A stretch of DNA of 64,000 nt from a virus (Duplodnaviria; Caudoviricetes), in IMG/VR virus record IMGVR_UViG_2565956686_000002, positions 24,656 to 88,655 of that record. The stretch is one strand, 5' to 3'. How positions within the stretch are numbered: the first letter of the stretch is position 1; each line of letters opens with the position of its first letter. A model generated the notes under the pieces. That model was not told the origin of the DNA. It made no database searches and saw only the letters and a program-made list of their open reading frames with translations. Shown here one piece after another: positions 14,854 to 47,638 of the stretch. A program made the translations under genes and the position numbers.

Positions 14854-16080
14854 ATGGGTACTTTAAACTTAACGGCAGTCACACCTGATACGCCGTATAT
14901 CAAAAAAATCAAATCAGCTTTGGAAAAGGCAACAGGTCAAAGCATTCCACTGGTTGAAATTAAAAAGGTTCAGCGTAAAGGTGGTGTAAGCGTTGTACCT
15001 ATCTTTTTCGTCTTTGCTGGTGGACAAGAGCTAACACTATTTGCTCGTGCAAGTGCAGATGTCTTCAAATCTGAATTGAACGGAAAAGAGATCGTTTTAC
15101 CAGGTGATTTCAGTGACGATTACCAACAGACTTTTGATAACGCCGTTTCTGGAATGGCTAAGTTGATTCGTGAATCACAAGCCAAAGTTGAGCAACTAAA
15201 CCAAAAAGAAAAGGTCAAATTGCCACCACGAAAAAATCGTAGTATCCAGCAGCAAATCAGTGATAAGCGCGAAGAAGAAACACAACTTGATCAAGAGTTA
15301 TCTAATCTGACAGCACAGCGTGATCAATTACTTGAGCAATTGAAGCAGGCAAAAGCACAAAAGGAGGGTGGTGAAGCCACTCAGGGAAAGCAGATAGCTG
15401 AGGGAAAATCCTCAGCTTTTGATTCAGTCGATTGGGATGAAGAACAGCACCCTAGAGATGAAAATGGGAAATTTAGTGTAAGATCAAGCCATTCTAAATC
15501 TTTGGATGCTTCTGTGACTGAAAAGCATTTTAAACAGCCAAGTGAAACCTTTAGCATTTATGACGCTGGTGTGCCATTAATGGAGCCTGATACTTCAACA
15601 CCACTGAAAAAAGCAATTATTGATGTGGAAAATGGGATTAGAAATAATGAATTAGAAACAGGCGCTGCTTTCAATTCAGATGGTGTGATTTTGTTTAAAA
15701 GACAAGGATTGCCTGATCAGGTTACTTTAACTGATCATGAGTTAAGTTTATTGAATAATGCAGTTTTTAGTCACAATCACCCTAAAGGCATGCCTTTTTC
15801 TATTGCTGATATTCGTATGGCGATTACATATAACATCAAGGAAATACGCGCGGTAACACCATATTTGAGATATTCCATGTATCCTAAGAATCAATGGTGT
15901 AGTAAAGCTGCATTAATTGCTACAATTAATGATGTGAGTTTAGATGCTAATAAATTTGTAAATGAACAAGTACGGCTAGGCGAAATCAATCCTCAATTTG
16001 CAGAAGCAGAATATTTGCACTATATTTGGGTTAAGGTGGCTGATCGCCTAAACTTGAATTATGGGAGAGAGCGATCATGA
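14854..16080 (+). CDS. hdf: Hdf-like (DarA_N) head protein fused to JAB/MPN-like domain
   Basis: N-terminal DarA_N-like region and coiled coil; WDEEQHPRDENGKF; C-terminal E...SHNHPKGMPFSIADI. Confidence 0.65.
   Translation: MGTLNLTAVTPDTPYIKKIKSALEKATGQSIPLVEIKKVQRKGGVSVVPIFFVFAGGQELTLFARASADVFKSELNGKEIVLPGDFSDDYQQTFDNAVSGMAKLIRESQAKVEQLNQKEKVKLPPRKNRSIQQQISDKREEETQLDQELSNLTAQRDQLLEQLKQAKAQKEGGEATQGKQIAEGKSSAFDSVDWDEEQHPRDENGKFSVRSSHSKSLDASVTEKHFKQPSETFSIYDAGVPLMEPDTSTPLKKAIIDVENGIRNNELETGAAFNSDGVILFKRQGLPDQVTLTDHELSLLNNAVFSHNHPKGMPFSIADIRMAITYNIKEIRAVTPYLRYSMYPKNQWCSKAALIATINDVSLDANKFVNEQVRLGEINPQFAEAEYLHYIWVKVADRLNLNYGRERS
15384..15417 (+). other. Putative -1 ribosomal frameshift signal
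   Basis: In-frame G-GGA-AAG, 5-nt spacer, stem AGCTGAGG/CCTCAGCT; -1 frame stop at 15399-15401. Confidence 0.6.
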
Positions 16081-16280
16081 TGACTCATGAACAAATTGAA
16101 AAACTCTATGAACAACGCAATCAGGAGTTAAAAAAACAGGGTTTTGCTGCTGAGTTTGATGGGCCTGTATCAGAAGCAATTCAAGAAGATTTACTTTCAG
16201 ATTTTCGCAAGGACTTAGCCAAAACACTTGCAAGTATGCTAAGTGAGGGTGTTAGTTTGGGAAAGCCTGTCCAACGGTAA
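16077..16280 (+). CDS. Small hypothetical protein, possibly extended to 16360 by -1 frameshift
   Basis: ATGA coupling; in-frame G-GGA-AAG at 16259-16265. Confidence 0.6.
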   Translation: MMTHEQIEKLYEQRNQELKKQGFAAEFDGPVSEAIQEDLLSDFRKDLAKTLASMLSEGVSLGKPVQR

Positions 16281-16479: not shown

Positions 16480-16845
16480 ATGTATCTTAATTATCAATCT
16501 GTGATTGTCGATATTTTCATTATTACTTCATTCATTTTGCACGTATTTCTAGCATTTGGCAGCATTAAAACAATGTCTGGACCTTTATCAGCTTTGTTAA
16601 ATAAGGGTGTTACGGATGTAATTTTTAAGAAAGTAAAACGATTGATTTTTGGTTTGTCATTTCTCTGTTTTTGTCTTTCTTGTCTTGTTACTTGGCGAAG
16701 CTATGAATTGCTTTTATTCCTGAATGTGAATGGCTATGGACTTTATATTCTTTTAAGCACTTTTTTACTCTATAGCTTTGCAATTTTAGCAGCATTCACT
16801 TTCTGTAAATTGTTGTTGATGACAGCACAAAGGTCAGGCTTATGA
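16480..16845 (+). CDS. Membrane protein (about 3 TM helices)
   Basis: Hydrophobic segments; GGAG RBS. Confidence 0.65.
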   Translation: MYLNYQSVIVDIFIITSFILHVFLAFGSIKTMSGPLSALLNKGVTDVIFKKVKRLIFGLSFLCFCLSCLVTWRSYELLLFLNVNGYGLYILLSTFLLYSFAILAAFTFCKLLLMTAQRSGL

Positions 16846-17180
16846 TCGATTACAACAAAATCTTAGCAATGATTGCGCATTGGTTAGAGTCAGAGATCAA
16901 TGGATATATTGGTTCAGATTATGGCCCAGACTTTAATAGCTTATTTTTAGCACCACTCAGCGCACCAGTCGCCAATACCTTTATTCAAAAAATGAAAAAC
17001 GATATTCCAATCCTAAAACAGTTAAGCGCAGATCAATTTCAGATGTGGGCACAAGACGAAGGTTTTGAGACCAAAATTATCTATTTAAGAATTGGTCAAC
17101 AGATCGTAATTAATTTAAATGAAGTGCGCGAGAAGCAATTAGCGCGAAATGGAGAAACCTTCGATGTTGACGCAAGCTGA
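16842..17180 (+). CDS. Baseplate wedge protein (gp25/PmgA-like)
   Basis: WL....NGYIGSDYG motif, precedes baseplate J-like gene. Confidence 0.55.
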   Translation: MIDYNKILAMIAHWLESEINGYIGSDYGPDFNSLFLAPLSAPVANTFIQKMKNDIPILKQLSADQFQMWAQDEGFETKIIYLRIGQQIVINLNEVREKQLARNGETFDVDAS

Positions 17181-18606
17181 TTTTGAAGCACGATTGATTG
17201 CCAATATAGATGATTTTGAAATACTGGAACGGTATAACGCACAAGATCCAATCGTCCTAAAGTTCTTACGCTCTTTAGGTGCATATCTAGCATTATTCGG
17301 TCAAGAATTTGAAATCTCAGAACTTGAACCATTTGTAAAAACTCGTGATCGTTCAGTTATAGCGGATGCGACGAATAAGGGTATTCTACCTATTGGGATG
17401 CCAACACAGCATATTTTGGAGGTTATCAATCGATCAGCGAATAGTATTACACTCAGCCAAGGACGATTAATTGAGGACAATAGTGGTGGGCGGTATTGGA
17501 GATTATTACAACCAGTCACAGTTCAAGCTGGGTCTACTGGGGAAGTAACAGTAGAACAAAGTGAATACAGAGAAGTGCAATACACCGTCGCAAATTCAGA
17601 GACTTTTCATCGTGTCGAACTAAAGTTGCAAGATGATCTGGCATTAGCTGGATTGACTGTTCGTGATAATACAAATCAGAACTATATTCAAAAAAAACGT
17701 TGGATGAATGTAGCACCTTTGGAATATGCATTTAATCTTACAACGGACAGCCTACGCCGTATATTTATTGAGTTTGGGGATGATGACAGAGCAGGTCGAA
17801 CAGCTGCAGCAAACCAGACGTTTACTTTTGGTATTCTTGAGACCTATGGTGACGTTGACGTTTCAAGGCTAAAAGATGCCTCCTTAGCTGAGGTTTTAAC
17901 TTTAGATGAAACTAAAGTATCAGTACGTTTTAAACAAGGAGCTGTAGTTCGGCAAGGTGCAGACCCACTTAATATTTCACAGTTAAAAGTGCTTTCGACA
18001 TATCCTGCACTCTATGATGAAAATGCAGTTTTCTTAGGTAATTTTGATTACTTAGTACGGCAAAAGTATATGGCCCGATGCCACTATATCGCCGTATGGA
18101 ATGAGAACGAACAGAATCGATATTACGGTGTTACTTACCAAGATATTAACCATTTACATATCGCCATAGTTGCAAAGAATAATTTAGAGCAAGCAAGCTT
18201 AGAGCAAGAAATCATTCAATATATTGGTCAACTTGATAGTCTTTATAAAGAGAGAGTACGTGTTCATATCGTGGAAGAAAAACCATTTATTATCACTCTT
18301 AATGGCCGTTTAGCTTCTGTACATGACTTAGATGGAGTGAAAAGCCAGATTAAAGGGTTATTGATTGAACGCTATGGTCGGACGCAATTAAGATCAAATC
18401 GTTGGTTAATGAATGGCTTTAATACACAAGAAATTTCTACACAACTCAGAAAAAATATTGTCGCCTTTCAAGATAACATTAGTGATTTCTCTGTAAATGT
18501 TCCAAAGATTTTGAATAAACCACATGAATGGGTCTTTGTTACTAATGAGAGTATTACACTTAATATTGAGCGAACAGCAGAGACAGGTGAAGCATGGTTC
18601 CTGTAA
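17164..18606 (+). CDS. Baseplate wedge subunit (J/BplA-like)
   Basis: IEFGDDDRAG motif, GADP, size and context. Confidence 0.7.
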   Translation: MLTQADFEARLIANIDDFEILERYNAQDPIVLKFLRSLGAYLALFGQEFEISELEPFVKTRDRSVIADATNKGILPIGMPTQHILEVINRSANSITLSQGRLIEDNSGGRYWRLLQPVTVQAGSTGEVTVEQSEYREVQYTVANSETFHRVELKLQDDLALAGLTVRDNTNQNYIQKKRWMNVAPLEYAFNLTTDSLRRIFIEFGDDDRAGRTAAANQTFTFGILETYGDVDVSRLKDASLAEVLTLDETKVSVRFKQGAVVRQGADPLNISQLKVLSTYPALYDENAVFLGNFDYLVRQKYMARCHYIAVWNENEQNRYYGVTYQDINHLHIAIVAKNNLEQASLEQEIIQYIGQLDSLYKERVRVHIVEEKPFIITLNGRLASVHDLDGVKSQIKGLLIERYGRTQLRSNRWLMNGFNTQEISTQLRKNIVAFQDNISDFSVNVPKILNKPHEWVFVTNESITLNIERTAETGEAWFL

Positions 18607-19229
18607 GTTTTACTCGACCAATTGATGAGCAGCCAAACAACCACACAGGCTTAGAAACAGCAATGTCAAAGGCTTTTAAACAGGTCTTTGCAGACGTTTA
18701 TCAGCAAAGATTACAGGATGTTTTGGACTATGGAGCGCCACATTTAGGCAGTCGAACGGTTGTAGATCGTTTTACAAAAAAGGACGGATTAGTAGTTTTG
18801 CGCCGTCCAATTACTTCAGATACGTTAATGCAAGTGATTTATGCGAATTGGTCAAGTTTGGCAAGTGAGCGTGGATTAGGGTTCCTTGAATTTGTATTGA
18901 GAATGATCTGGACAGATAGATGGCAAATAAAAAGAATGTGGCATCCAATTAATTTAATTAATAGCTACCCGTTGTATTTAACTGATGAAGAAAAACCTGA
19001 TCATTTTCTAACTAGCCGTATTCAAATATCAATTGATGATTCAATAGAGCTTTCTGAAATTATTGAATTGTCACCAATTTTAAGAAGATTAGTACCAGCT
19101 AATATTGTAGTAAAAGTGATTGCAACAGGATTAGAAACAGACCTAGAAAGTCATACGGACCTAAGCATAGCTGTAATTGGCAAAAGCTATTTGATTTATG
19201 ATGAAAGTGATGGGATAACACAAAATTAA
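18594..19229 (+). CDS. Baseplate wedge subunit (I-like)
   Basis: RGLGFLEFVL and RLVPANIV motifs, follows J-like gene. Confidence 0.55.
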   Translation: MVPVSFTRPIDEQPNNHTGLETAMSKAFKQVFADVYQQRLQDVLDYGAPHLGSRTVVDRFTKKDGLVVLRRPITSDTLMQVIYANWSSLASERGLGFLEFVLRMIWTDRWQIKRMWHPINLINSYPLYLTDEEKPDHFLTSRIQISIDDSIELSEIIELSPILRRLVPANIVVKVIATGLETDLESHTDLSIAVIGKSYLIYDESDGITQN

Positions 19230-19244
19230 TTGTCCATTAATAAT

Positions 19245-19322
19245 TGGAACTCAAGAAAATGAAGTTCACCTAACAATGTTTTTATGTATTTGTTTGATGA
19301 AACAACATAAACCATTGTTAGG
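19245..19322 (+). promoter_or_regulatory. Putative late promoter plus long RBS-occluding hairpin
   Basis: TTGGAAC; CCTAACAATG (19269) pairs with CATTGTTAGG (ends 19322). Confidence 0.5.
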
Positions 19323-19330
19323 ATTTATAC

Positions 19331-19786
19331 ATGACTCAAGACAATAATGAAGAAATTGCACTAACAACCGATGTGGGTAGTGATGGTGATCTTCTTGTGG
19401 AGCAATTCTTAGGGTTCGCAGATAAAGATATTGGCGACGAAGAATTTGAAAAATTAATGGCTGGTCAAACGGTAGAAGGCGTAACAGCCTATAAACCAGC
19501 AACCTATTACAGAATTTCAGCCGATCCTAGCTCTACTGACTATAACGAACCTTTTGATATTCATCTCCATTTCCAAGATGGTCCAACATTTGTTGATGGT
19601 ATTAATGGCGCGACTAATGAATCGTTATTAAAGATCCTGATTCATCGCACCCAATACCTAGACAGTAAATTCCCATCAGACCAGAACAAACAAGCTATTG
19701 CTGCTATGCAATCGGCTTTGGATGCATTTGATGCACGCACAGCAGAACGTCAAGCGCGTGGTGTTGAAGGGCAACCAGTCGAATAA
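19331..19786 (+). CDS. tad1: Tad1-family anti-defence nucleotide-signal sponge
   Basis: FQDGP..GING.TNESLLKILIHR...FPSDQN..A....AL....RTAER.ARGVEG matches recalled Tad1 pattern. Confidence 0.75.
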   Translation: MTQDNNEEIALTTDVGSDGDLLVEQFLGFADKDIGDEEFEKLMAGQTVEGVTAYKPATYYRISADPSSTDYNEPFDIHLHFQDGPTFVDGINGATNESLLKILIHRTQYLDSKFPSDQNKQAIAAMQSALDAFDARTAERQARGVEGQPVE

Positions 19787-19798
19787 CCGTTTGAACTC

Positions 19799-19831
19799 AG
19801 CCCTTTGCAAATTTGCTTAGGGCTTTTTTTT
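19799..19831 (+). terminator. Intrinsic terminator
   Basis: AGCCCT..GCAA/TTGC..AGGGCT plus T tract. Confidence 0.65.
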
Positions 19832-19849
19832 CTTACTGAGGATATTGAA

Positions 19850-20047
19850 ATGCGTATGAGCAGAATAATGATAGCTAGTGCTATTGGAATGATGGCAAGT
19901 AGGATTGGTTCGGCAGTTGAAGCGACTCCTTTATTAGGAGGTTCTGTTTCTCCATTCATGTTTGAGACTAAAGCAGTCGGCAGCAAACCAAACAAAGTTA
20001 GTCAAAAGAAACGCCGTATGAATGCACGCCGTAAGGGGCATAAATAA
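19850..20047 (+). CDS. Small basic protein
   Basis: GAGG RBS; Lys/Arg-rich C-terminus. Confidence 0.55.
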   Translation: MRMSRIMIASAIGMMASRIGSAVEATPLLGGSVSPFMFETKAVGSKPNKVSQKKRRMNARRKGHK

Positions 20048-20059
20048 AGGGGTATAAGG

Positions 20060-20320: not shown

Positions 20321-20335
20321 TAGAGGTAATTTTAA

Positions 20336-20849: not shown

Positions 20850-20870
20850 CCTTAACCAGACTGCAAAAAT
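20830..20870 (+). promoter_or_regulatory. Putative late promoter (TGGAAC...AAAAAT)
   Basis: +39 spacing; hairpin GCCCTAATA/TATTGGGGC before ATG 20903. Confidence 0.7.
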
Positions 20871-20902
20871 GGCCCTAATACATAATCTATTGGGGCTTTT
20901 TC

Positions 20903-21826
20903 ATGTCTGAAACGGGTCGAAAAACGAAAAGGATTACATACAATCTTCATGAACGTGGTCGCAGTCATTTGGGGAAGGACCGCAGCAATGTTGATATGAA
21001 TGAAATGATCAGACAGATCAATAGTCCACAAGTACAAGAAATGGTTAAAACAGGGACTTTGTACGGCTATAACGGTCATGAAATTCGCAAACGTTATGGG
21101 ATGAATCCGCCTGATTCAGTCATTATTGATGGCAAGGTGGTTTATTTAGAACGCTCATTTAGAACAATCGAAGCTCATGCAGATAAAAACGGCAATGTTA
21201 CTCATGTTACTGAGTTCTTAGATAACGAATCGGGTGAATATGCGCGGAAACAATATCTTGCGCGTGTAGGTGGATTTAGTTCGGCACAAAACTATAAGCG
21301 AGCTGGCTTAGGTTTAATCCCCGTGGGGTTTTATGGCTTTGATTATGTGACACAGCCGAACTACACAACCAATGTTGGTGATGGTCAATTATTTGATGGC
21401 TTAGCCATTCCAGTTGAACAGGATGGATTAATTGCAGCGTTTGATAGCACCACGGACGTTAATTTACTTTCGCCGTCAGAGGCAATGATTGCTCATTTAC
21501 TAGAACAGCAAATTGTACGTGACTTTGACAATATCCACGCTCAACTACAGCTTTTACAAATGAATGGTCAAGCACTAGACCAAATTGAGGAATTAGCTGA
21601 TCAAATAGCACGTAAAGAGAAACGACAAGCGATTCAAGATCAACGGGAACAAGATTTATGTTCTGGCTTAGTTGGTGAAGTACGATCATTTGATTCTGTT
21701 TGCGCTGAAGCTGAAGAACGTCTTACAGCAAGTGATTTAGCACGTATGCGAATCAGCGGTGAAACACCTAAAAACAACAAAGCAAGACCACGCATTTTTA
21801 AGAGTATGTTTGGATTTGGAGGGTAA
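20903..21826 (+). CDS. Prohead maturation protease (P1 Pro-like)
   Basis: LYGYNGH, NGNVTH, GGFSSA, GFDYVTQPNY motifs resemble recalled P1 Pro. Confidence 0.75.
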   Translation: MSETGRKTKRITYNLHERGRSHLGKDRSNVDMNEMIRQINSPQVQEMVKTGTLYGYNGHEIRKRYGMNPPDSVIIDGKVVYLERSFRTIEAHADKNGNVTHVTEFLDNESGEYARKQYLARVGGFSSAQNYKRAGLGLIPVGFYGFDYVTQPNYTTNVGDGQLFDGLAIPVEQDGLIAAFDSTTDVNLLSPSEAMIAHLLEQQIVRDFDNIHAQLQLLQMNGQALDQIEELADQIARKEKRQAIQDQREQDLCSGLVGEVRSFDSVCAEAEERLTASDLARMRISGETPKNNKARPRIFKSMFGFGG

Positions 21827-21832
21827 TCACTT

Positions 21833-22639
21833 ATGTCATTACCTAAAGACTCACTCAAATGTATTCAAGATGCTTGGTATAAGCTTTTAGTCGATTTTCG
21901 GGCATGGTATATGCCTGAAACCATTCAGACAGAAGAATGGAAAAAGCGAGATATTCGAACAGCAATCAAGAGTTGCCCGTCTCGAATGATGGATGACTCA
22001 GAAGCAATGCTTGCAGAATATCGCAAAAGCCAAAATGCAGAAGTTGTAGCTGGAGCAACGGCATTCATGCCTATTATGTTGACTGCTACAGCGATGTTAG
22101 ATCAACCGCCTGATACGATGCAGCTTTTACCAATGCCTTATTTTGTGCCTGTAGTGATCGGCGATAAGCAAGTAAAAATCCGACTCATCGCCAAAACAGT
22201 TAGAGCACAACTAGCTTTCTACGCAACCAATGCACACGATGCGCGTTCTGTATGCGATCAATTTTGCACTTATGTACAAGATGAAGATAAACGCCGTTTC
22301 CAAGTGCCTTTTGATATGGGCATGAATCATATTGAAAAAAGCACATTTACCATAGTTGAGAATCAATTGTTTCCTTCGCCTGTGCCTAGCGAAGCAATTA
22401 ACCTGTCTATCTTCACGATTGATGCTCAATTAGTAGGCTATGCACCACAAATTATAGGACTTGGTGGTCCTAACGATAATACGACGGACAACGGCTACAA
22501 TCCGGACGGTTCAGTAGTTGATAAGCCAATTCAGGATCTAGTTGTCATTCAGGCTGATCAATTCTCAAGTGATGGCCATGCACGTGTTTTAGCAGATCGT
22601 GAAACTGGCGATATTACAGTGGAGCGTATCGATGACTGA
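21833..22639 (+). CDS. Virion protein (P1 gp24-like tail completion/stability)
   Basis: Context and recalled similarity. Confidence 0.5.
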   Translation: MSLPKDSLKCIQDAWYKLLVDFRAWYMPETIQTEEWKKRDIRTAIKSCPSRMMDDSEAMLAEYRKSQNAEVVAGATAFMPIMLTATAMLDQPPDTMQLLPMPYFVPVVIGDKQVKIRLIAKTVRAQLAFYATNAHDARSVCDQFCTYVQDEDKRRFQVPFDMGMNHIEKSTFTIVENQLFPSPVPSEAINLSIFTIDAQLVGYAPQIIGLGGPNDNTTDNGYNPDGSVVDKPIQDLVVIQADQFSSDGHARVLADRETGDITVERIDD

Positions 22640-23141
22640 AATTATTAAGATTGATGCGCGTGTAACTGGATTCTCTAATGATGAAATACGATTGATTAGT
22701 CTTTGTTTTGCAGATTCTGGTCAAATACTTGTCCAAAAAACAGATATTTTCACGGCTTTACCTTTACGTCCAGATCAACAAGCAGACACGATCGTAGTGA
22801 CGGATTCACCGAATTTAATCCAAAATTGGCAATTAAAATTTGACGCACAGCAGCATTTAGAAGAAGTGATCAAGGTCTATCAGGCAAGCTTTAGAGCTGG
22901 TTTGGTTGAGTTTGAGAAGTCATTAGAACGTTATAACCCAATGAATATTTTACAGGTGCGTAAGATTGATAAAAACGGACCACAGCAAGAGTTTGATAGT
23001 AGCTCACTAGATAACGGACATATTGCTGCACTGATTTCGATATGGGCAAGTCATAAAATCGCTATTTCTCATGCAGTCACATCAAAAGAGGAAGTTAAAG
23101 AAGAATACATCGATAGAACCATGTTGCCTTTTAGTATTTAA
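22632..23141 (+). CDS. Phage hypothetical protein
   Basis: GGAG RBS before ATG 22632. Confidence 0.6.
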   Translation: MTEIIKIDARVTGFSNDEIRLISLCFADSGQILVQKTDIFTALPLRPDQQADTIVVTDSPNLIQNWQLKFDAQQHLEEVIKVYQASFRAGLVEFEKSLERYNPMNILQVRKIDKNGPQQEFDSSSLDNGHIAALISIWASHKIAISHAVTSKEEVKEEYIDRTMLPFSI

Positions 23142-30804: not shown

Positions 30805-30845
30805 AGGTTATCAATTTTCAAAAACCTATTTCAAAGGTGAAAAAA

Positions 30846-32609
30846 ATGTCAGTTTTATCTGATCCTCAAAGTGCACTTTATCAAGCGCAATTAGCAGCTA
30901 CTACACAATGCCAAAACTATTTTTATAAAAATGGTGAAGCTGGTTTTGACAGTGTGAATCATATGGCTGAGACTCGACCAACTGCATTAAATGAAATTTT
31001 AAATATTGTTGGCTTTGATAGTGCAGCAGATGTTGATAATGCGATTAAAGTTGGACTCTCACAATATCAATATTGTCATGGTGGTGATTTACCACATGCA
31101 TCCGTGTTGGCCACTGCTTTAGATGCTGGTTTATGCATGGCAAAAAAAGTAAGCGGTTTTACTGGTACACATAAACAAAATCTTGAACAATTAGAATCAG
31201 GATTCGATGATGTAAGTAATACACATCATGAGTCTGTCAGTATTGTGCCAGCTATGACCGTTGCAACGATTGCAACGTTAATTGCCTTTGCTTCTCCCAT
31301 TATTGCCTATATTCCGAATAGCAATGGTTCGAATGAAGTGCCGATTGTTGCAGCGCGATTTACTACTGATCGTGCTTTTGGTGCGATGGCAAAAGGTGAG
31401 TATTTGGATGGTGTAAATGCATCTAAACCATACTCTGAAGGTCGTTTCCGTTTTGTGTTGGATAATGGTGGTGCAGGTACAACCTATTCAACAACTGCAC
31501 GTACAAAATATGCGAATTATGCAGATAAAACACCAGACGTAAATGCACCATTATTACCTTTTATCGGTGGCAGTATCTCGATTCGCATCAACGGGAAAGA
31601 AGTTGCGCACACACGTAACCGCAGTAAGTCGAAATTGGCTGGTCAAATTTCTGCAATTACTGAGAAATCAGCAAAAATCGCAGGTGCTGAATATAGCGTG
31701 ACTGCAAGTACAATTAACTTGGATGACAGCACAATCTCAGTAACCTTCAACCAAGCATTGCCGAATGGTGTAAAAGCGGAAGTGTTCTTGGTCGCTGATT
31801 ATGAAGCGAAAGACGTAAATAATAAGTTTAAGCTTGATCCTGTTGGTATCAGTATTTCGCCTGAATATGAAACGATGGTGAGTTCACCAATTGTCACTCA
31901 AATCCATGCATCAAAATTATTAGTGAATCAGATCACTAATGAGTTGAATATCGGCTTTGTTGGAACCGCATTGTCATTAATGCAAGGCAAAATTTATCTT
32001 GAGCAAACAGTGCGACTACTTGGCGAAGGCAAAGAACGTGCACAATACAATGATCGTGAATTTACGTTCGATGCAAGCCGTGGTGTTGCTGGTAATTTAG
32101 CTGCTGCATATAACACTTCGGGGGACTTGTTTGGCGAGCTAATGAAGTATATTGAAGCTGCAAAAATTGGGATTGTACAAGATTCAGGTGGTGCAACCGT
32201 AGGCTTTGATTTGTACGTCGGTGATAGTGCAAAAGTGTTCTTTGCTCAATTATCGGCTGACAAAATGCCAGTCAAAACAGGTGCCACGGCTGGTCATGGT
32301 CAAATCGTGCGAATTGGTACTTTAGCTGATGGTACCAACGTTTATCATTTGCCAACCTCTGCTGGTGTTCTGGTTGAATCTGATCAAACTTTTGAGATGG
32401 AGTTAGTTGGTCGTGGCAGTGAACCTGTACGCAATCCGCTTGTCGGCTTCATTGAAATGCCATTAACCGTGAGTGAGGCAACGCCTGATCCGCGTGAAAG
32501 CTTACTTGCTTTGATCGGTTCTCAAGCTGCTGAATTAAATCCACTCGACCGTTATGCAGATCAGTTTGCATTACTCAAAGCAATCAATATGCCACGATTA
32601 AAAAGTTAA
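30846..32609 (+). CDS. Major capsid protein (P1 gp23-like)
   Basis: Size, FGAMAKGEYLDG..YSEGRFRF segment resembles recalled P1 gp23; strong terminator downstream. Confidence 0.8.
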   Translation: MSVLSDPQSALYQAQLAATTQCQNYFYKNGEAGFDSVNHMAETRPTALNEILNIVGFDSAADVDNAIKVGLSQYQYCHGGDLPHASVLATALDAGLCMAKKVSGFTGTHKQNLEQLESGFDDVSNTHHESVSIVPAMTVATIATLIAFASPIIAYIPNSNGSNEVPIVAARFTTDRAFGAMAKGEYLDGVNASKPYSEGRFRFVLDNGGAGTTYSTTARTKYANYADKTPDVNAPLLPFIGGSISIRINGKEVAHTRNRSKSKLAGQISAITEKSAKIAGAEYSVTASTINLDDSTISVTFNQALPNGVKAEVFLVADYEAKDVNNKFKLDPVGISISPEYETMVSSPIVTQIHASKLLVNQITNELNIGFVGTALSLMQGKIYLEQTVRLLGEGKERAQYNDREFTFDASRGVAGNLAAAYNTSGDLFGELMKYIEAAKIGIVQDSGGATVGFDLYVGDSAKVFFAQLSADKMPVKTGATAGHGQIVRIGTLADGTNVYHLPTSAGVLVESDQTFEMELVGRGSEPVRNPLVGFIEMPLTVSEATPDPRESLLALIGSQAAELNPLDRYADQFALLKAINMPRLKS

Positions 32610-35745: not shown

Positions 35746-35758
35746 ATAGGTGATAACA

Positions 35759-36535
35759 ATGTTTGGCGCAAAAAATCCGTTTAATTTAAAACCACAAGAA
35801 AATGTATTACGCGACTTTGATTCTGCTGCAGCTGGAATTACAAGTAGCGTGAATACATTGACTAGTTCAATTCGTGAAGAACTTTCATTTATTGAGCACG
35901 TTCGAGAAATGGCTTTGAATATCGTATCTGATCTAGTTGATGCGGTTATTGACAATACTTTAGATGACAATGAATTGCCGACTGACCGTCTTGATTTTCT
36001 TATTCTGGATGCCTTAGATGGTGCAGATGATGAAAATGGTACGTTGGAAAATGCATTAGTTGCTTCCATTGATGATGCACTTTCAAGTTTTGGTGTAGAT
36101 GACTCAGTGATTGCTGAAATCTTTAGCGATAATATTGAAGCTGCTGATGCTGCAATTGAAGCTGCTGCAAGCACAGTAATTGCCAATATGCCTGATGAGG
36201 GTGATCCATTAGATGAATTAGTACGTGAGTTTATCTATGGTGAACCAGACGAAGAAGATGGTTTTGACTCGGCTAGTGGTAAGAAAAAGCTTTCTCGTGG
36301 TCAGATGACGACGAAAAGTGTAGGTGGCCGTAAAGTGCGTTATAAAGCGATTGCAGCAATCCGTAATGGTGTTAAAAAGATCGTGAATAAGCGATTACCA
36401 GGTCAACGTATCCGTCTTTCAAGTGACCAAAAAGCTGGACTAAAGAAAGCGAGTTTAAAAGCGCGTTCAGCGAATTCATTGCGAAAACGTATGAAGTCGT
36501 TGCTTAAAGGTAAAAAGATTGGTCTATATAAATAA
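35759..36535 (+). CDS. Prohead core/scaffold-like protein
   Basis: Acidic body plus basic IRNG.KK...RLSSDQKAGLKKA tail. Confidence 0.6.
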   Translation: MFGAKNPFNLKPQENVLRDFDSAAAGITSSVNTLTSSIREELSFIEHVREMALNIVSDLVDAVIDNTLDDNELPTDRLDFLILDALDGADDENGTLENALVASIDDALSSFGVDDSVIAEIFSDNIEAADAAIEAAASTVIANMPDEGDPLDELVREFIYGEPDEEDGFDSASGKKKLSRGQMTTKSVGGRKVRYKAIAAIRNGVKKIVNKRLPGQRIRLSSDQKAGLKKASLKARSANSLRKRMKSLLKGKKIGLYK

Positions 36536-39647: not shown

Positions 39648-41192
39648 ATGGCTGCTTCAGACATCCTTTCTTTGTTGTTGGGAACAAATGCGAATAGCAT
39701 CCCTCAGCAAGTGGTTGATGCTAACCAAGAAGTCATGGCGCAAATGTATGATTCCGTTGCGCCTTTTTCGCTTGGGACACATACAACACAGGAAAACAAG
39801 AAAAGAACACGTAAAGAAATTCTGACCAAGTGGGAGCAAATGCTAAAGTTCGCTCCCGTAGCAGAGGGCATTGGTATTCATGTCATGGCTGCACTTGGAG
39901 GTGATACACATACGGGCCAACAAATATTTATTACGCCTACAGAGCGATTGCGTGGGGAAATAGGCAAAACTGAAAAAGCGCAATTAGAAAAACTACAAAA
40001 GCGTATCAAACCAATAGAAACTATCATAAATAAATACATCACGAAGCTATGTTCTGAAGGTATTTCCTTTGGGGATGCATATGCCCGTGTATATGGTAAA
40101 AAGGGAGTAGGCGTTACTGACTTACTTAGTAATGAATATACTTATGCGCCACAAATACAGGCATTTGAGCAAGGTAGTAAGACAGTCGCTTACTTTGCAC
40201 TGAATCCAAAAAACTGGTCCAAAGTCATGACTAAGTTGAATCACACACAGATGGTTCGGATGAAGTTGCCACGGATTCAAAATGTACCGCAATTTGATCC
40301 AGTTGAAGCTAGTTTAATTTCTCAAATGCTTGAAGGTGATAATCCAGAAGAATTGCCGATCTTACCTGCACAGGTCGGTGGCTCATTTCTCTATTCAATT
40401 GAGAAAACCTATGATGATGTCATCCTTGCCTTAACCACGATGAACAGTCAGCAAGTTGCTGATGCAGTCAATCAAATGTTTTTGACGCTGAACATGGCTG
40501 GTATGCCTCCAGCACAACGTGATGCTTATATCCGTGGTCTTGAGGGAATGCTAAAAGATCATGAGAAGTTCGTGAAAAATGCAATGGAAGGCGGTGAGGG
40601 CATTTGGAATACCAAATATCACGTTTTACCGACATGGGATGAAAAGCAGATTCTTAATCCTGTGGGGGATATTAAAGGCCAACGTAATTCTCCAGTAAAT
40701 ATCGAAACCTTTATGATCAATGTCCGTCTACTTATGGGCGGTATTGGCCTTGATCCTTCAATGGTGGGCTGGGCTGATATGCTTTCTGGTGGAATTGGAG
40801 ATGGGGCATCCTTTCATACCTCAAGTCAAATCATGCGCCGTTCCATGTATATTCGCCAATCGGCTGTTCAATTCGCCAATGATATTATGCATATCGATTG
40901 GGGTTATTGTTATAACGAGCAATTTGAAGCAGGTGAATTAGATTATCCGTGGCAAATTGAGTTTTCTAGTACCCAGTCAGCAGCTGTGACAGAAGAAAAT
41001 ATCAATAAACAAACGCAGATGAATACATCCTTGCTTAAAATTCAAGTCATTAACTCACTCAAAGAATCCGATTTAAGTGAGGAAACGATGCAATATATTT
41101 TAGAAAAAGATGCTGGTTTTAACTATGACGATTCATGTCGAATAGCAGCTGATATTGCGAAATCTCGTCTCAATGGACAGGGTGAACAATAA
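39648..41192 (+). CDS. Portal protein (P1 Prt-like)
   Basis: FGDAYARVY, GGSFL, GLDPSMVGWADMLSGG.GDG motifs. Confidence 0.8.
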   Translation: MAASDILSLLLGTNANSIPQQVVDANQEVMAQMYDSVAPFSLGTHTTQENKKRTRKEILTKWEQMLKFAPVAEGIGIHVMAALGGDTHTGQQIFITPTERLRGEIGKTEKAQLEKLQKRIKPIETIINKYITKLCSEGISFGDAYARVYGKKGVGVTDLLSNEYTYAPQIQAFEQGSKTVAYFALNPKNWSKVMTKLNHTQMVRMKLPRIQNVPQFDPVEASLISQMLEGDNPEELPILPAQVGGSFLYSIEKTYDDVILALTTMNSQQVADAVNQMFLTLNMAGMPPAQRDAYIRGLEGMLKDHEKFVKNAMEGGEGIWNTKYHVLPTWDEKQILNPVGDIKGQRNSPVNIETFMINVRLLMGGIGLDPSMVGWADMLSGGIGDGASFHTSSQIMRRSMYIRQSAVQFANDIMHIDWGYCYNEQFEAGELDYPWQIEFSSTQSAAVTEENINKQTQMNTSLLKIQVINSLKESDLSEETMQYILEKDAGFNYDDSCRIAADIAKSRLNGQGEQ

Positions 41193-41982: not shown

Positions 41983-43884
41983 ATGCGAAATATCGACATA
42001 TTTACTTTATTACATGAACCACACACTAGCCGTTTAGTACAGGGTTTTGATTCTGTGAATAGTGGTGCTTGTTCAATTGGAGTAGTCAAAGGGCAATGCC
42101 GTCAACTTAATGCGATTTTGACAGAATCGGCAACGGAAGAAGATCAGTGGCGTATTGTAAATTTGAAGGGTTCAATCAATAGCATTGCAGCCTTTGATTC
42201 AGTTGCCGTTTTGGGTGCTGTTGATAATGATCATGCCAGTGCATTAGCACAAATGCAGTTTGGGCGTATGTTTGATGCCATTGAAGATGATGTAATTGAA
42301 ACTAATACCAACGGTCTATTGCGACATTTAGCAACACCGCAATTTCATAAGCATAAGCAACTTATTCATCGAGATCATTTAGTCGCATTGCAAGATATTC
42401 CATGTGCTGTATTACCAGGATGGGACGGTATCGAACTAACAACACATGAAGGAAAAACAGCAAATCTACTATTAGACATGCAACTTCATGATGACAATAC
42501 CGAACTATTATCGAGTTTTGATGGGTTAGCCAATTTGCTTGAATCAATTGGAGTAGAACATCCTGATTTTGATTCAATCATTGTTGAGTATCAATATCTC
42601 GATAAGTTAATTGATATGCTGCATACAGCTATGCAGACAGCGTCTAAAGGCGGTGTAAAGGTTCTAAATGTAGATCGTAGTGAAAAGCCATTTCGACACA
42701 AAAAAGTGCTGAATGTCGCCGTTTCTTATGATTTTGAAGATGGGCAATCCATTACGATTCTATTCCATAATCCTGATCGTGACGCAAAACGGATTTCGCC
42801 ACAAGACACTTTATTGTCGTGGAAGATTCTTATGAATAAGCGTGATGTAACAGGCGTGATTCAGCCCAACCAAGGTGAAGGTATTGCATTACCTGTACTT
42901 GCTGGACGTGTTGTTAAATTGATTAATCAGAACAGTGCACGGTTTAAACGTACTCAAGCTAAGAAAGCTGAAAGTGCGCAAACTTTAGCTGATACTGAAC
43001 AACGTATTGCAGACAAGCAAAATCAAAAGACCGCTTTATCTTCAGAAATTCAGGGGCTGCTTGATCAAATTGATGGTTTAAATAAGCAAAATAATGGTCA
43101 AGCACCAAATGCTGATACTGATGCAGTGGTAAATACTGAACAATCTGCAAATACAAAAGCTGTGACAAAAGCAGAAGCTCGTCAAATTTATGATGCTTTA
43201 GATATTCGACATCGTTGGTTGACGGGTGGTACCACGGAAGAATTCTATAACCAGAATTATCCAACTGGAATTAGCGAAGCGCTTACAGATGCAAAAAATC
43301 TACTTGAACGTCCATTTGGAAAAGTTGCATTGGCAAATGGATTAAAAGATTCAATTGAACGAATGATTGCAACTGTAGAAAAGACAATTGAGCGCTGGAA
43401 TAAAGGCTTAAGTGAGGATTCATCAAAAGCCAAAACCTATCCGCCCATTGAGAATTTAGGCAATGGTTATTACAAAGCATTCAAAAACGATAAAAAGCTT
43501 GATGATTGGACAGCCCATATCAATACAAATGGTGAATGGGAAGTTTCAGCAAACAATGCCTCATCTCGAGCATGGAACAATGGCTATGGGGCACCACGTT
43601 TCTTTAAAACAATTGAAGAAATGATTGCCAAATACCCAGCATTTGCTGCTTTACCTGCAATGTTACCCACAGATGATAATGCAAACGCTAATAGCAATAA
43701 TGATGATGCAGACTATCTGAATAAAGTCATTAAGGGTGAGGTTGATTTTTCTAAAGCTAGTGAAGTTGAAAGTCAACTAGAATCAATTGGCAGTCGCTTA
43801 ACACCTGAAACCAATGATCTATTTGAACAGGCTGTTTCAGCTTATTCAATGTATCAAGTCAATCAAGCTGCTTCAGTCAATTAA
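41983..43884 (+). CDS. darA: DarA-like internal head anti-restriction protein
   Basis: DGQSITILFHNPD...LMNKRDVT...NSARF (DarA_N), coiled coil, C-terminal DYLNKVIKGEVD (DarA_C). Confidence 0.8.
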   Translation: MRNIDIFTLLHEPHTSRLVQGFDSVNSGACSIGVVKGQCRQLNAILTESATEEDQWRIVNLKGSINSIAAFDSVAVLGAVDNDHASALAQMQFGRMFDAIEDDVIETNTNGLLRHLATPQFHKHKQLIHRDHLVALQDIPCAVLPGWDGIELTTHEGKTANLLLDMQLHDDNTELLSSFDGLANLLESIGVEHPDFDSIIVEYQYLDKLIDMLHTAMQTASKGGVKVLNVDRSEKPFRHKKVLNVAVSYDFEDGQSITILFHNPDRDAKRISPQDTLLSWKILMNKRDVTGVIQPNQGEGIALPVLAGRVVKLINQNSARFKRTQAKKAESAQTLADTEQRIADKQNQKTALSSEIQGLLDQIDGLNKQNNGQAPNADTDAVVNTEQSANTKAVTKAEARQIYDALDIRHRWLTGGTTEEFYNQNYPTGISEALTDAKNLLERPFGKVALANGLKDSIERMIATVEKTIERWNKGLSEDSSKAKTYPPIENLGNGYYKAFKNDKKLDDWTAHINTNGEWEVSANNASSRAWNNGYGAPRFFKTIEEMIAKYPAFAALPAMLPTDDNANANSNNDDADYLNKVIKGEVDFSKASEVESQLESIGSRLTPETNDLFEQAVSAYSMYQVNQAASVN

Positions 43885-44237: not shown

Positions 44238-44269
44238 AGTCCTAAATGGGCTATTTTTTTGTGCGTGAA

Positions 44270-47200
44270 ATGAGCAAAGTTAAAAATGTTACTAATGGAT
44301 CAGAAGCGATAAATGCTATAGATATACTTGCTGATTCCCTACAAAAATACCGTCAAGATAATTTCGACTTTCTATCTGGGGAACCAATAGCTGAGATTAA
44401 ATCTGGGCTAATCCTGCCAGATGCAGAAGGCAAAATTATTAAAAATGCTATGCAGTGGTTAAGAGACTGGTTTGTTGAGAACAATCACGGGCAAGAATTT
44501 CTAAATGAGCAATTAGGAACTGTGATTATTGCACCCAGTGGCATTAAATCTGCAATGAGTCATAAGCCAAAGCAAATTGATATTCAAGGTTTACCAGCTT
44601 TACCCCTGATCATTGATAAGGCCAGAGTCTTAAGCCGATCTATGGATGATGATGGTAAGCCACTTGAAAATATTATCGTTGCAGCACCAATTAAAATTGA
44701 TAATCAAAAGTGCTATATGGTCGTGCGTTTGAGAAGACACACTGAAGATAAAAATGATAAACCAAGATTTTATACTCAGGCAATCATGATTGCTGAAGAC
44801 AAAAAAAAGGGGAACATCCCTTCAGACCAAGTGGCTGGGCAAAATAATTTGCTTACCCAAAATGGAGGACGCTCCCGTCTTATTAATGTATTGCAAGATG
44901 CGTTGCATGTCAATCCAGTAGTTGAGCCAATAAAAATAAAAGTTTATGGCTGGAAGGCTGTAGATATGGCTAAAAATTTGTCCTACGAACAATTAGAGAT
45001 ACTCACTCTGAAAACTCAAAAGGAACATTTAATTCCAGAAAATCAGAGGGTAGATATTAATATTTACGATAAAAAAGGGCGTAAAAAATTAGATGTTTTA
45101 AGTTGGGCTGTACATTACAAACTAAAAGAGCCGAAGACTAGCCAGAGTGAAAGTGATAAGCCGTTAGATCATGAAGATATATTGCGGATTAGAGAAAAAT
45201 TTCAAAAAGATTATGAGCAAGGCGCATTTGATAGTGTAGATGGATTCGATTCAATCGAATTAGATAATCAGGATCTACTAGGTACAATAGACAAGTTGAT
45301 CGAAGCGGTTGAAAACTATCATTTAGAAAATTCAAAATTCTTAACTAATAAGCCTACCAGCTCAAATCCGTCTGAGCAAATTAAAAACAAAATGGCCACG
45401 ACCCTTATGACCAGTCCGATCTTTGATAAATCAAAGGGTAGGATTGAAACTGGAGGTCGTGACCATCTATTAAATATACCTTATGATCCTTTGACTATCA
45501 ATCATGCGTTCCGTGGTCGATCTAACAACGTCAAAACAGCCAAGGGTACTAAGGTATCAACTGTATTTGCAGTGTTAGAAGCTGATCAAGTGATTGCTTC
45601 ACATACGGCTACAGGCGCTGAAAACCCTAGTTATCCTCAAGAACTACAACCACGAGATCGTAGTCGAGAATCTTCTCAAGCGTGGGTACAAAAAACTTCA
45701 AATACGCTTGATCCTGAAAGTCTTGGCCGATCAGGTCGTGCAGATACTGGTGCGCCTATCATTGGTGATGATCTGGTGGTTGAGTCTGGTAATGGACGTA
45801 CTATGGCAATTCAGCTTGCATATGAGCGCGGAAATGCTGATGAATACAAAGAATGGTTGATTGATGAAGCAGAATATTTTGGCTTTAGTGCGGATCAAAT
45901 CAACCAATTTAAACAGCCCATCCTTGTGCGTATTCGTACCTCTGAAATTGATCGTATTCAATTTACAGTAGAAGCCAATCAAGATGATAAGTTGTCCTTT
46001 AGTGCGACTGAACGAGCAAAAACAGATGCAAGACGATTAGATGAGAACCTATTGTCATTGTTTACACCTGGTGAAGATGGCGACCTAATCACTGCAAGTA
46101 ATCAGAAGTTTATCCAAGGATTTTTAAGGTCTTTAGGTGAAACGGAAGCAGCTCAATATATCGGGACAGATGGAAAGCCAACACAAGCATTAGTCACACG
46201 TATGAAAGCTGCAATATTCAGCAAAGCTTATAATGATGACCGACTTCTTGAAATGATGGCAGACCAAACGAAGCCAGATTTGCAAAATATGCTAAATGCA
46301 TTAGGTGTAGCAGCTCCAAAATTTATTGAAGCGCAAGCCGTCAGCCGTGGTGACGTGCAGGATGTATCAAGTTCTATTGTTGATGGTATTGAGCAAGCAC
46401 TTGATAAGCGAGTGACAAATGCAATTATTGATGCAGCGAATACGATCTTGGCAGCAAAGCAAAATGATCAAGATATTGTTGAATTTGTAAAACAACAGGG
46501 TTTATTTGGTGATCTTGGCGAAGGCGTGCCAGAGCTTGCAGTATTCTTATCTAAGAATAGTCGCAGCGCCAAAAAGATGAGTTTGCTATTCAAAGCAATG
46601 GCAGAGTTTGCAGAAAAAGAAGCGATTGATGGGCAAAACATGGGGCTTTTTGGTGAACCTGAACCTGTCAGCATCAAAGATGCAATCAATTACGCCGTGA
46701 AAGTGATTGAGGATAATTATGGTGATAATGCCAATCTGAGCATGTTTGATTCTATTGATTCACTTACGTCAATAGATGAAAAAGCACATGCTGCAGCTAC
46801 ATCACCTCATAATGATTTAGACTTTCCAACAGCAGAACAAAAGCAATCTGGTGAATATCAAAAAGGGCATTTATCGATTGGTGATTTAAAAATTGCTATT
46901 GAGAATCCAGCAGGTTCAATCCGTTCAGGAACTGACCCTAACGGGAATGAATGGCAAATCACGATGAAGCATCACTATGGTTTTATTGAAAATACTACTG
47001 GTGCCGATGGTGATGAAATTGATGTTTTTGTGAAAAATCATTTGGCCGTTGAACCTAAATGCGCCTATATCATCAAACAGTTAGATATTAACGGACAGTT
47101 CGATGAGCAAAAAGTCATTATTGGTGCTGAATCAGAAGAAGAAGCGAAGGAAATTTATTTATCAAATTATGAAAAGGGTTGGCAGGGCTTAGGAGGCATC

Positions 47201-47638
47201 AAGAAAATATCTATGGCTGATTTGTTGAAGAAGATTCAACATACTTGGTCAGAATTCGATTCTTGGGCTAGAGATGGAAGCTATGATCACATCCCTATAG
47301 ATCAAGTAATCATTGAAAATGCACCTAAGATAGTTGAAAGTAAAATTGACAAAGAGGACCCGATTGTAGTGCTTGAAACACACGGGAAATATCATCTTGT
47401 CATTGGTTTAGATCGAATTATGTTGGCTAAGCAAAGGCATGAAAGATTTATTCCAGCAATCATTTTTGATAGTAAGGATATATCTAAATCAATTATTCAA
47501 AGCGCTATTAAGCAAGCTGGTTCGAAAGTTGACCCTGTTGCTTTAGCTGCACTTATTTTAGATGAATTAGAGAAAAGCCTAGTCAATAGTTTTGATGATA
47601 TATCGAACCCCATTTTAGATATTCTTTATGTAACATAA
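44270..47638 (+). CDS. ddrB: DdrB-like polyvalent protein (LPD-like, ddrB-ParB, inorganic-pyrophosphatase-like, ParB-like domains)
   Basis: YPQELQPRDRSR...GAPII...VESGNGRT; IAIENPAGSIRSG.D..G..W...HYG...GADGDEIDVF. Confidence 0.8.
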   Translation: MSKVKNVTNGSEAINAIDILADSLQKYRQDNFDFLSGEPIAEIKSGLILPDAEGKIIKNAMQWLRDWFVENNHGQEFLNEQLGTVIIAPSGIKSAMSHKPKQIDIQGLPALPLIIDKARVLSRSMDDDGKPLENIIVAAPIKIDNQKCYMVVRLRRHTEDKNDKPRFYTQAIMIAEDKKKGNIPSDQVAGQNNLLTQNGGRSRLINVLQDALHVNPVVEPIKIKVYGWKAVDMAKNLSYEQLEILTLKTQKEHLIPENQRVDINIYDKKGRKKLDVLSWAVHYKLKEPKTSQSESDKPLDHEDILRIREKFQKDYEQGAFDSVDGFDSIELDNQDLLGTIDKLIEAVENYHLENSKFLTNKPTSSNPSEQIKNKMATTLMTSPIFDKSKGRIETGGRDHLLNIPYDPLTINHAFRGRSNNVKTAKGTKVSTVFAVLEADQVIASHTATGAENPSYPQELQPRDRSRESSQAWVQKTSNTLDPESLGRSGRADTGAPIIGDDLVVESGNGRTMAIQLAYERGNADEYKEWLIDEAEYFGFSADQINQFKQPILVRIRTSEIDRIQFTVEANQDDKLSFSATERAKTDARRLDENLLSLFTPGEDGDLITASNQKFIQGFLRSLGETEAAQYIGTDGKPTQALVTRMKAAIFSKAYNDDRLLEMMADQTKPDLQNMLNALGVAAPKFIEAQAVSRGDVQDVSSSIVDGIEQALDKRVTNAIIDAANTILAAKQNDQDIVEFVKQQGLFGDLGEGVPELAVFLSKNSRSAKKMSLLFKAMAEFAEKEAIDGQNMGLFGEPEPVSIKDAINYAVKVIEDNYGDNANLSMFDSIDSLTSIDEKAHAAATSPHNDLDFPTAEQKQSGEYQKGHLSIGDLKIAIENPAGSIRSGTDPNGNEWQITMKHHYGFIENTTGADGDEIDVFVKNHLAVEPKCAYIIKQLDINGQFDEQKVIIGAESEEEAKEIYLSNYEKGWQGLGGIKKISMADLLKKIQHTWSEFDSWARDGSYDHIPIDQVIIENAPKIVESKIDKEDPIVVLETHGKYHLVIGLDRIMLAKQRHERFIPAIIFDSKDISKSIIQSAIKQAGSKVDPVALAALILDELEKSLVNSFDDISNPILDILYVT

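Follow-up and report, generated by a model that had tools for sequence, protein, structure and literature searches.

The 64,000-nucleotide stretch of DNA analysed here, hereafter the window (positions 24,656 to 88,655 of IMG/VR virus record IMGVR_UViG_2565956686_000002; G000:C2:547116-611115 within a 3.5-Mb genome), carries a prophage in which the tripeptide Phe-Asp-Ser (FDS) recurs in the predicted head proteins. By protein homology this prophage is a distant P1-like myovirus of the Acinetobacter/Moraxellaceae type. Window proteins matched Pro, Prt, PacB, DarA, DdrB, BplA, gp25 and gp21 of phage P1 in blastp searches, and DarB weakly. Among isolated phages, Acinetobacter phage vB_AbaM_ABMM1 (ABMM1 below) is the closest, with 45-77% identity across most structural proteins, and Xanthomonas phage Rb1 is a further relative. 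Homologues of the protease, the capsid protein and the DdrB-like protein were found mostly in Acinetobacter and other Moraxellaceae. The genes that carry most of the FDS sites are the following, with the sites given by nucleotide (nt) position:

14854..16080, plus strand: Hdf-like protein, a capsid anchor (residues 1 to about 185) followed by a 218-residue C-terminal domain; match to PHROG 'Hdf-like antirestriction' over residues 2-172
nt 15418-15426, plus strand: FDS189 of the Hdf-like protein, at the junction between anchor and extension
20903..21826, plus strand: Pro-family prohead protease, in which a protease domain (about residues 1-156) is followed by a disordered linker and then by a pair of long helices
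nt 21392-21400, 21440-21448 and 21689-21697, plus strand: candidate self-cleavage sites FDG164, FDS180 and FDS263 of Pro, in the linker and at the helix break
30837..32609, plus strand: major capsid protein with an N-terminal propeptide, identified by homology to the ABMM1 and Rb1 capsid proteins
nt 30945-30953, 31014-31022 and 31203-31211, plus strand: capsid sites FDS37 and FDS60 and the predicted maturation site GFD124↓D (the arrow marks a known or predicted scissile bond)
nt 32067-32075, plus strand: FDA411, inside the mature capsid fold and probably no site
35750..36535, plus strand: homologue of P1 gp21 (28.8% identity)
nt 35816-35824 and 36263-36271, plus strand: FDS23 and FDS172 of the gp21-like protein
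41983..43884, plus strand: DarA-like internal head protein; Pfam DarA_N at residues 195-318 (E 1.4e-25)
nt 42046-42054, 42193-42201, 42271-42279, 42517-42525 and 42568-42576, plus strand: FDS22, FDS71, FDA97, FDG179 and FDS196 of the DarA-like protein
44246..47638, plus strand: DdrB-like polyvalent protein of 1130 amino acids (aa); Pfam LPD3 66-169, ddrB-ParB 433-564 (core about 424-835) and InPase 864-997
nt 45227-45253, 46745-46753, 47255-47263, 47465-47473 and 47591-47599, plus strand: FDS328/334, FDS834, FDS1004, FDS1074 and FDD1116 of the DdrB-like protein

In order to evaluate the recurrence of the motif, we counted tripeptides in 73 of the 89 open reading frames (ORFs) of at least 80 aa, amounting to 19,752 residues, 16 nested or overlapping ORFs having been excluded by eye. 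FDS occurred 19 times when 3.18 occurrences were expected (Poisson p 1.5e-9), which makes it the most over-represented tripeptide of the window; the runner-up, LEQ, reached p 1.6e-4. None of 2000 within-protein shuffles attained 19 copies (mean 3.2, maximum 11). Fifteen of the copies lie in six proteins: Hdf-like (1), Pro (2), capsid (2), gp21-like (2), DarA-like (3) and DdrB-like (5). The initial annotation of this DNA had named the same six proteins, with 14 copies in total and 4 in DdrB; the recurrence holds and both counts rise by one. The four copies that it had reported in all other genes are those of ORFs 5192, 22599 and 23177 (minus strand) and of the RES protein at 47769. Around the 15 sites the motif extends further, with G or A at substrate position P3 in 9 of 15 and V, I or A at P2' in 12 of 15.

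The enrichment follows the head. We defined a head set a priori, by homology to P1 virion head proteins only (Hdf, Pro, capsid, portal, DarA, DdrB and DarB-like); it contained 13 FDS in 4,818 aa, versus 6 in the remaining 14,934 aa (Fisher p 6.3e-5). The seven tail proteins contained none in 2,943 aa, so that the head-versus-tail enrichment proposed in the initial annotation was found. For a background, we took 2,133 ORFs of 200 aa or longer from the genome outside the window. They held 122 FDS for 117.6 expected (observed/expected 1.04), with at most two copies in any one ORF. The signal is specific for Phe at P2: FES, LDS, YDS, MDS and the general patterns phi-D-[SGAD] and phi-E-[SGAD] were not enriched in the window, and FES did not occur at all in the a priori head proteins.

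The capsid protein was present in 21 of 301 genomes, the one bearing the window included. From the 20 others we compared six relatives (G238, G032, G183, G150, G078 and G136), picked so as to span a range of identities (84% to 30%) and to lie on long contigs; about 60 kb was taken from each, and 36 kb from G078, where the contig ends. These relatives are kin, and counts across them are repeated looks at one history. Among tripeptides in the orthologues of window proteins, FDS took first place in three relatives (G238, G032 and G183); its rank was 3 for G150, 5 for G078 and 6 for G136. The motif sites fell in the same proteins (Pro, capsid, gp21-like, DarA-like and DdrB-like), and the tail orthologues contained one FDS in the G238 sheath, one in the G032 sheath and none otherwise. 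ABMM1 has sites at matching positions in its capsid protein, Pro, gp21-like protein, DarA and the homologue of ORF 22599, with different flanks. The FDS motif is thus strongly non-random, and it is conserved in place while neighbouring residues change.

The capsid protein shows this conservation most clearly. It shares 61% identity with the ABMM1 'head vertex protein' and 25% with the Rb1 major capsid protein. Its translation start is probably an ATG three codons downstream of the GTG at 30837, as homologues begin with MSV or MTV. Counted from GTG, the FDD of the SGFDDV string starts at residue 123 and its Asp is residue 124; counted from MSV, this Asp is residue 121, as in the initial annotation. 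We aligned 54 capsid proteins (the window protein, 52 database homologues down to 42% identity and ABMM1). All 54 have both FDS37 and D124, and 51 have the Phe of the latter site, in a region (residues 1-135) whose mean identity to the window protein was 0.53; the expected conservation in homologues was therefore observed. The second site shifts by about five residues between subgroups. The propeptide carried at least three FD[SDGA] in 50 of the 54 proteins, some of them with extra copies in an insertion.

Phage P1 provides a mapped bond for comparison. Its capsid protein gp23 is cut at E120↓S121, as established by Edman sequencing, leaving a mature N-terminus SVAAEM (PMC9024508). In a three-way alignment, AMLE↓SV of P1 gp23 fell on SGFD↓DV of the window and ABMM1 proteins, with D124 opposite E120, in line with the initial proposal that SGFDDV sits where gp23 is cut. 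The proteins are distant and were aligned globally with MAFFT, so that the match rests on shared length, shared architecture and the Rb1 bridge; a tblastn search with the window capsid protein did not retrieve P1 gp23 even at E 10. The predicted mature capsid protein of the window has a mass of 49.7 kDa, compared to 49.3 kDa for that of P1 (PMC9024508). The Rb1 capsid protein carries three phi-D-[S/G] sites within its first 115 residues, and further phi-D sites occur in the internal head protein and the DarB-like protein of Rb1.

The candidate enzyme is the product of 20903..21826. It shares 25.6% identity with P1 Pro over residues 39-307 (tblastn E 6e-16; blastp E 6e-21). Searches of Pfam and of PDB sequences returned no match for it, and its fold was obtained from a predicted model. 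The AlphaFold2 (AF2) model, built from 27 homologues, had a mean predicted local distance difference test score (pLDDT) of 73.9. It consists of a domain (residues 1-150), a low-confidence linker (154-183) holding FDG164 and FDS180, and helices 191-256 and 263-285, with FDS263 in the break between them. Residues 1-156 of the model matched T4 gp21 (5jbl) with Z 10.7 and root-mean-square deviation 3.5 over 131 aligned residues; herpesvirus proteases came next (Z 5-5.7), and a Foldseek match of the model had E 1.3e-3. The model and the homology identify Pro as a serine prohead protease of the T4 gp21 fold, homologous to P1 Pro. H59, S126, D147 and D181 are invariant in the 27 diverse homologues. 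From invariance and spacing, H59, S126 and D147 likely form the catalytic triad; their spacing in the sequence resembles that of H77, S153 and D178 of SPN3US (PMC5694885).

The three post-domain sites of Pro stand out from their surroundings: Asp was found in 71, 67 and 57 of 76 aligned rows (D181 being the 67 of 76), in a region of mean identity 0.43. The sequences GMFE↓SAD and TLFE↓SLI of P1 Pro align with FD sites of the window protein. Past the protease domain, phi-E-[SAGD] occurs 4-7 times in P1, D6 and JK004, where phi-D-[SAGD] is absent; in this region the window, ABMM1 and Rb1 proteins have 3-5 phi-D-[SAGD] and at most one phi-E. We then searched 1.84 billion representative sequences with a Pro-family profile. 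The best 150 of 347 hits (E up to 0.001) were taken, of which 141 extend at least 80 residues past the domain. In these 141 representatives, phi-D-[SAG] occurred 526 times versus 110 expected and phi-E-[SAG] 79 times versus 104 expected; 128 were of Asp type, 3 of Glu type and 10 unclear. The profile was built from Asp-type sequences, and Glu-type relatives may rank below the best 150. Within this sample, the sequences indicate that Asp is the common state of the Pro family and that the narrowing to Phe at P2 is the feature particular to the window. The initial annotation had spoken of a lineage that switched to Asp. With 128 of 141 representatives of Asp type, and Rb1 of Asp type too, that description is too narrow. 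Around the putative nucleophile S126 (residues 125-127), 133 Asp-type sequences read GGF-S-[S/T], versus GGW-S-W in P1, D6 and JK004. We take these residues as a lead only for determinants of the S1 pocket, the Glu type being represented by three related sequences and confounded with ancestry.

The internal head proteins carry the motif in regions expected to be lost or separated. Five F-D-x sites lie within the first 198 residues of the DarA-like protein, FDS196 standing at the start of DarA_N; four of the five are kept in ABMM1 and all five in G238. About residues 1-69 of P1 DarA are lost and lack density in cryo-electron microscopy (PMC12810830), and the P1 DarA sequence carries LLE68↓A. 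Homology between the window Hdf-like protein and P1 Hdf stops where P1 Hdf (200 aa) itself stops. Short Hdf proteins of 171-185 aa, without FDS, are found in G238, G032, G150 and G183. Extended forms occur in the window (408 aa), ABMM1 (313 aa) and G136 (318 aa), and these have an FDS directly after the Hdf homology; the motif is thus present in Hdf only where a cargo domain is fused. P1 Hdf is reported to be unprocessed and, like DarA, to be bound to the inner capsid surface (PMC12810830). Retention of this kind would explain why anchor and cargo should be joined by a link that can be cut.

The Hdf anchor is joined to differing C-terminal domains; that of ABMM1 gene 77 (24126-25067, annotated as a TPR protein) is a PBECR1 nuclease (E 7.6e-13). 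No Pfam family matched residues 191-408 of the window protein at E up to 0.1. Its structural neighbours in the Atlas are phage proteins of the MuF or minor-capsid-protein-2 type, which we treat as a lead only. The 'JAB' label previously given to this extension found no Pfam JAB match in residues 191-408. An H-N-H-P...S-x-x-D string is visible in the extension and may be JAB-motif-like.

The DdrB-like protein offers the largest set of junctions. FDS328 and FDS334 precede its core, FDS834 stands at the core end and FDS1004 lies seven residues after InPase. FDS834 (SMFD835↓SI) aligns with GGLFE441↓SV of P1 DdrB and QMYD↓SL of ABMM1, where the conserved DdrB core ends, and F834 and D835 are invariant in 24 DdrB-like homologues. 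The AF2 model of the protein shows short low-confidence dips at 826-839 and 1002-1011, centred on FDS834 and FDS1004. We took the best 120 of 308 homologues (E up to 1e-10), read 21 differing architectures and ran Pfam on 7. An F-D-x was found 7-9 residues after InPase in all five proteins with a non-terminal InPase (the window protein included). In 8 of 8 proteins one marks where the DdrB core ends, at a distance of 400-407 residues past the start of ParB, and in 2 of 2 cases one precedes RelE by about 50 residues. Whatever the order of the modules, an F-D-x divides each preceding module from the DdrB core. RelE, PBECR3, ART and MuF-C domains are added in the DdrB-like proteins of relatives. 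Two FDG matches inside the ART and InPase domains of one homologue (P0357) are probably no sites. The placement of DdrB and Hdf sites at domain boundaries, noted in the initial annotation, is borne out for FDS834, FDS1004 and FDS189, which stand at junctions, and by the flanking of modules in relatives.

Processing of polyvalent proteins, P1 DdrB included, was assigned by Iyer et al. in 2017 to their own metallopeptidase domains (PMC5512222). A Pfam search, made at the level of sequence with E up to 0.01, found no peptidase or metallopeptidase domain in the DdrB-like protein of 1130 aa. P1 DdrB (OP279344.1, ddrB 19981-22968) contains GDIE708↓AS, and a cut there would release a 77.2-kDa N-terminal piece. 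The processed form is quoted as 76 kDa (PMC5512222). As the two values are close, Pro instead of the DdrB metallopeptidase might make the P1 DdrB cut at E708.

Both sites of the gp21-like protein are F-D-[S/G/A] in four of the five relatives that have the protein; the fifth, G183, has F-D-A at the first and Y-D-A at the C-terminal site. The protein is bipartite at FDS172, with an acidic part (25-173, isoelectric point (pI) 4.1) and a basic 88-residue tail (174-261, pI 12.0). No function was obtained for it from PHROG, Pfam or the Atlas. As in P1, its gene has the sheath gene on one side and the tube gene on the other. The 'core' label of the initial annotation was not retained, since the protein is the homologue of P1 gp21, which the P1 record describes as 'baseplate or tail tube'.

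Other motif-bearing genes, and one that lacks the motif, complete the locus:

22599..23141, plus strand: 180-aa protein directly upstream of the large terminase gene; FDS132 at nt 22992-23000
39648..41192, plus strand: portal protein (portal PHROG, E 9.6e-186)
nt 39747-39755, plus strand: YDS of the portal MYDS (residues 33-36), a weak candidate site
47769..49145, plus strand: HEPN/RES-domain protein, encoded between the DdrB-like and DarB-like genes; Pfam RES at 228-379 (E 6.7e-16)
nt 48912-48920, plus strand: FDS382 of the RES protein, a single site three residues past the RES domain
49229..52939, plus strand: DarB-like helicase/methyltransferase, weakly similar to P1 DarB; Pfam ResIII, Helicase_C and MTS

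The QMYDSV string reported earlier for the portal protein is present, at residue 34, and both G238 and G032 retain MYD[S/A]. The HEPN/RES protein, encoded inside a Dar-like operon, may be a packaged effector; no homologue of it was found in the six relatives. No FD[SGAD] occurs in the DarB-like protein, and this cargo protein is predicted to stay whole. A giant protein of 3,200-3,450 aa is also encoded by ABMM1 (16609-26964) and G136. Its initial 160 residues match an ORF of 160 aa that stands alone in the window (38655-39137), and the giant protein contains no FD[SGAD], versus 2.0 expected.

Taken together, we propose, with a probability of about three in four, that [G/A]-F-D↓S-[V/I/A] is the cleavage code of Pro, used both in capsid maturation and at the junctions of fused cargo. 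From the comparisons above we infer cleavage itself, the identity of Pro as the enzyme, D↓S as the bond and the injection of the fragments. During head assembly Pro would cut after the Asp of this motif, its P1 phage counterpart being the Glu of phi-phi-E↓S. The capsid propeptide, of about 124 residues, would be chopped at three sites and removed, and Pro would be freed from its own C-terminal helices. The DarA-like protein would lose its first 197 residues or have them diced. Fused cargo modules would be split off their capsid-bound anchors and become able to leave with the DNA; the fusions concerned are Hdf anchor↓effector and LPD3 part↓DdrB-ParB core↓InPase↓tail. Of the initial idea of an Asp-specific code that dices cargo proteins, the code and the dicing are thus upheld by comparison (P1 alignment and flanking of modules), but not the switch of lineage.

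Several observations weigh against this proposal. The gp21-like protein keeps its two sites, yet the annotation of P1 gene 21 reads 'baseplate or tail tube'. The terminase-adjacent protein of 22599, of unassigned role, keeps its FDS in ABMM1 and in five of the six relatives despite changed flanks. The portal site is lost in ABMM1, which has LYET instead. FDS1074 of the DdrB-like protein lies in a predicted strand and may be no site, and the model of this protein is poor (mean pLDDT 55, with 43% of residues below 50), which makes the location of four of its five FDS in low-confidence segments merely suggestive. Conserved F-D-x are also found inside folded parts (capsid FDA411, TerL FDG48); the motif by itself does not define a cut, and accessibility must matter, as is usual for prohead-type proteases. 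The kinship of the relatives lowers the weight of each repeated observation. The text of the ABMM1 paper gives identifications of gel bands from liquid chromatography with tandem mass spectrometry, without band sizes or termini, and in the literature covered we found no mature N-terminus or peptide for the window phage or any relative.

We considered whether F-D-S could be a cleavage signal for an enzyme other than Pro, either a host protease or a phage peptidase such as the C-terminal domain of the Hdf fusion. The link between Pro and the sites rests on comparison; polyvalent proteins have been assigned metallopeptidases of their own, as noted above for P1 DdrB; and the gp21-like protein, if a tail protein, may be out of reach of a head-confined protease. 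The motif occurs, however, in the linker of Pro itself, aligned with phi-E-S of P1, and the residue at position P1 co-varies with the protease lineage in three proteins. Relatives without the extra Hdf domain retain the motif everywhere else, and the DdrB-like protein has no Pfam peptidase domain. We therefore consider a different enzyme unlikely.

An uncut docking or assembly motif, which would bind the capsid interior, the portal or a protease exosite and so target proteins to the prohead, seems to us more doubtful still. Short linear motifs conserved in disordered linkers can bind, and P1 DarB uses an N-terminal capsid-targeting signal (PMC9024508). But docking gives no reason for an Asp or Glu class that tracks the protease lineage, and in the alignment one of the sites falls on the bond at which P1 gp23 was mapped to be cut. 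Dicing is also the better fit for a propeptide with as many as five sites and for sites that flank internal modules. A recurrence due to composition, to shared ancestry of repeated domains or to chance is extremely improbable. About three FDS are expected in the window, and DarA and Hdf share a DarA_N-type domain; against this stand the p-value of 1.5e-9, the 0 of 2000 shuffles and the genome background of 1.04. The flanks moreover differ between sites, and at identities of 30-60% the sites remain although the residues beside them vary. On the tripeptide test, the shuffles, the genome background and the conservation, we rejected chance, composition and a genome-wide bias.

If cleavage by Pro after F-D is correct, a whole branch of P1-like phages and prophages would use a different residue at substrate position P1, and the ends of mature capsid proteins would be predictable. 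Packaged and probably injected effectors could be listed from sequence: InPase, the DdrB-ParB nuclease, the PBECR and RelE nucleases and possibly RES. Such cleavage would constitute an alternative to metallopeptidase self-processing of polyvalent proteins. It would also provide a natural model of how anchor, linker and cargo can be combined to load phage heads with proteins, and it would bear on immune systems that sense phage proteases. Cyclic oligonucleotide-based antiphage signalling systems (CBASS) are reported to sense the activity of the T4 gp21 prohead protease through bait loops (PMC12991175). A broader and rather speculative picture, to which we give little credence as a whole, would join these points: the Pro family would hold a large unrecognised Asp-specific class, phi-D↓S would be a portable cut linker for effector-anchor fusions that reads out the injected arsenal, and the change between Glu and Asp, forcing a matching change in the substrates, would be driven by immune sensors of protease activity.

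The closest known system is head maturation in P1. Protease, portal, DarA, DdrB, Hdf and DarB-like proteins are homologous; both capsid propeptides have three candidate sites, with the maturation site at the same residue number and a nearly equal mature mass, and both have Ser at P1' and Val at P2'. The window differs in having Asp instead of Glu at position P1 and Phe fixed at P2, where P1 phage uses Leu, Ile, Phe or Met. Its Hdf and DdrB also carry extra fused modules bounded by the motif, whereas P1 Hdf is unprocessed (PMC12810830). All prohead proteases of this fold for which we found a described specificity (T4, phiKZ, 201phi2-1, SPN3US and P1) cut after Glu (PMC9024508, PMC5694885, PMC10052503), and a full-text search of a limited literature collection returned no report of one cutting after Asp. 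T4 gp21, phiKZ gp175 and SPN3US gp245 recognise L/I-x-E or S/A/G-x-E, while the predicted code of the window has Asp. In T4, phiKZ and SPN3US, Glu-specific, motif-coded cutting extends to head and ejection proteins and includes C-terminal self-cleavage (PMC5694885, PMC10052503). The window shares with these systems the fold (that of T4 gp21), a short code, multiple propeptide sites and, as predicted, C-terminal self-cleavage and the processing of ejected inner proteins; like them, it has the motif recurring in propeptides and in the C-terminal region of the protease (three in the capsid protein, five in the DarA-like N-terminus, three in Pro). The small residue at P3 (G/A in 9 of 15) is shared with phiKZ. 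Cuts in T4, phiKZ and SPN3US are reported to yield N-terminal propeptides, the protease's own propeptide excepted (PMC5694885, PMC10052503), whereas the window also has sites at internal module junctions. Like the polyvalent proteins of Iyer et al. 2017, the DdrB-like protein combines LPD3, ddrB-ParB and InPase above Pfam cut-offs; in place of a metallopeptidase of its own, it has motifs of the head-protease type at its junctions. In the capsid-targeting sequence system of T4, cargo is likewise attached to a portion that directs it to the head, from which the head protease gp21 releases it (PMC9024508). The anchors proposed for the window differ in being whole capsid-bound proteins, the Hdf and DarA N-domains, in an arrangement that would be both natural and modular.

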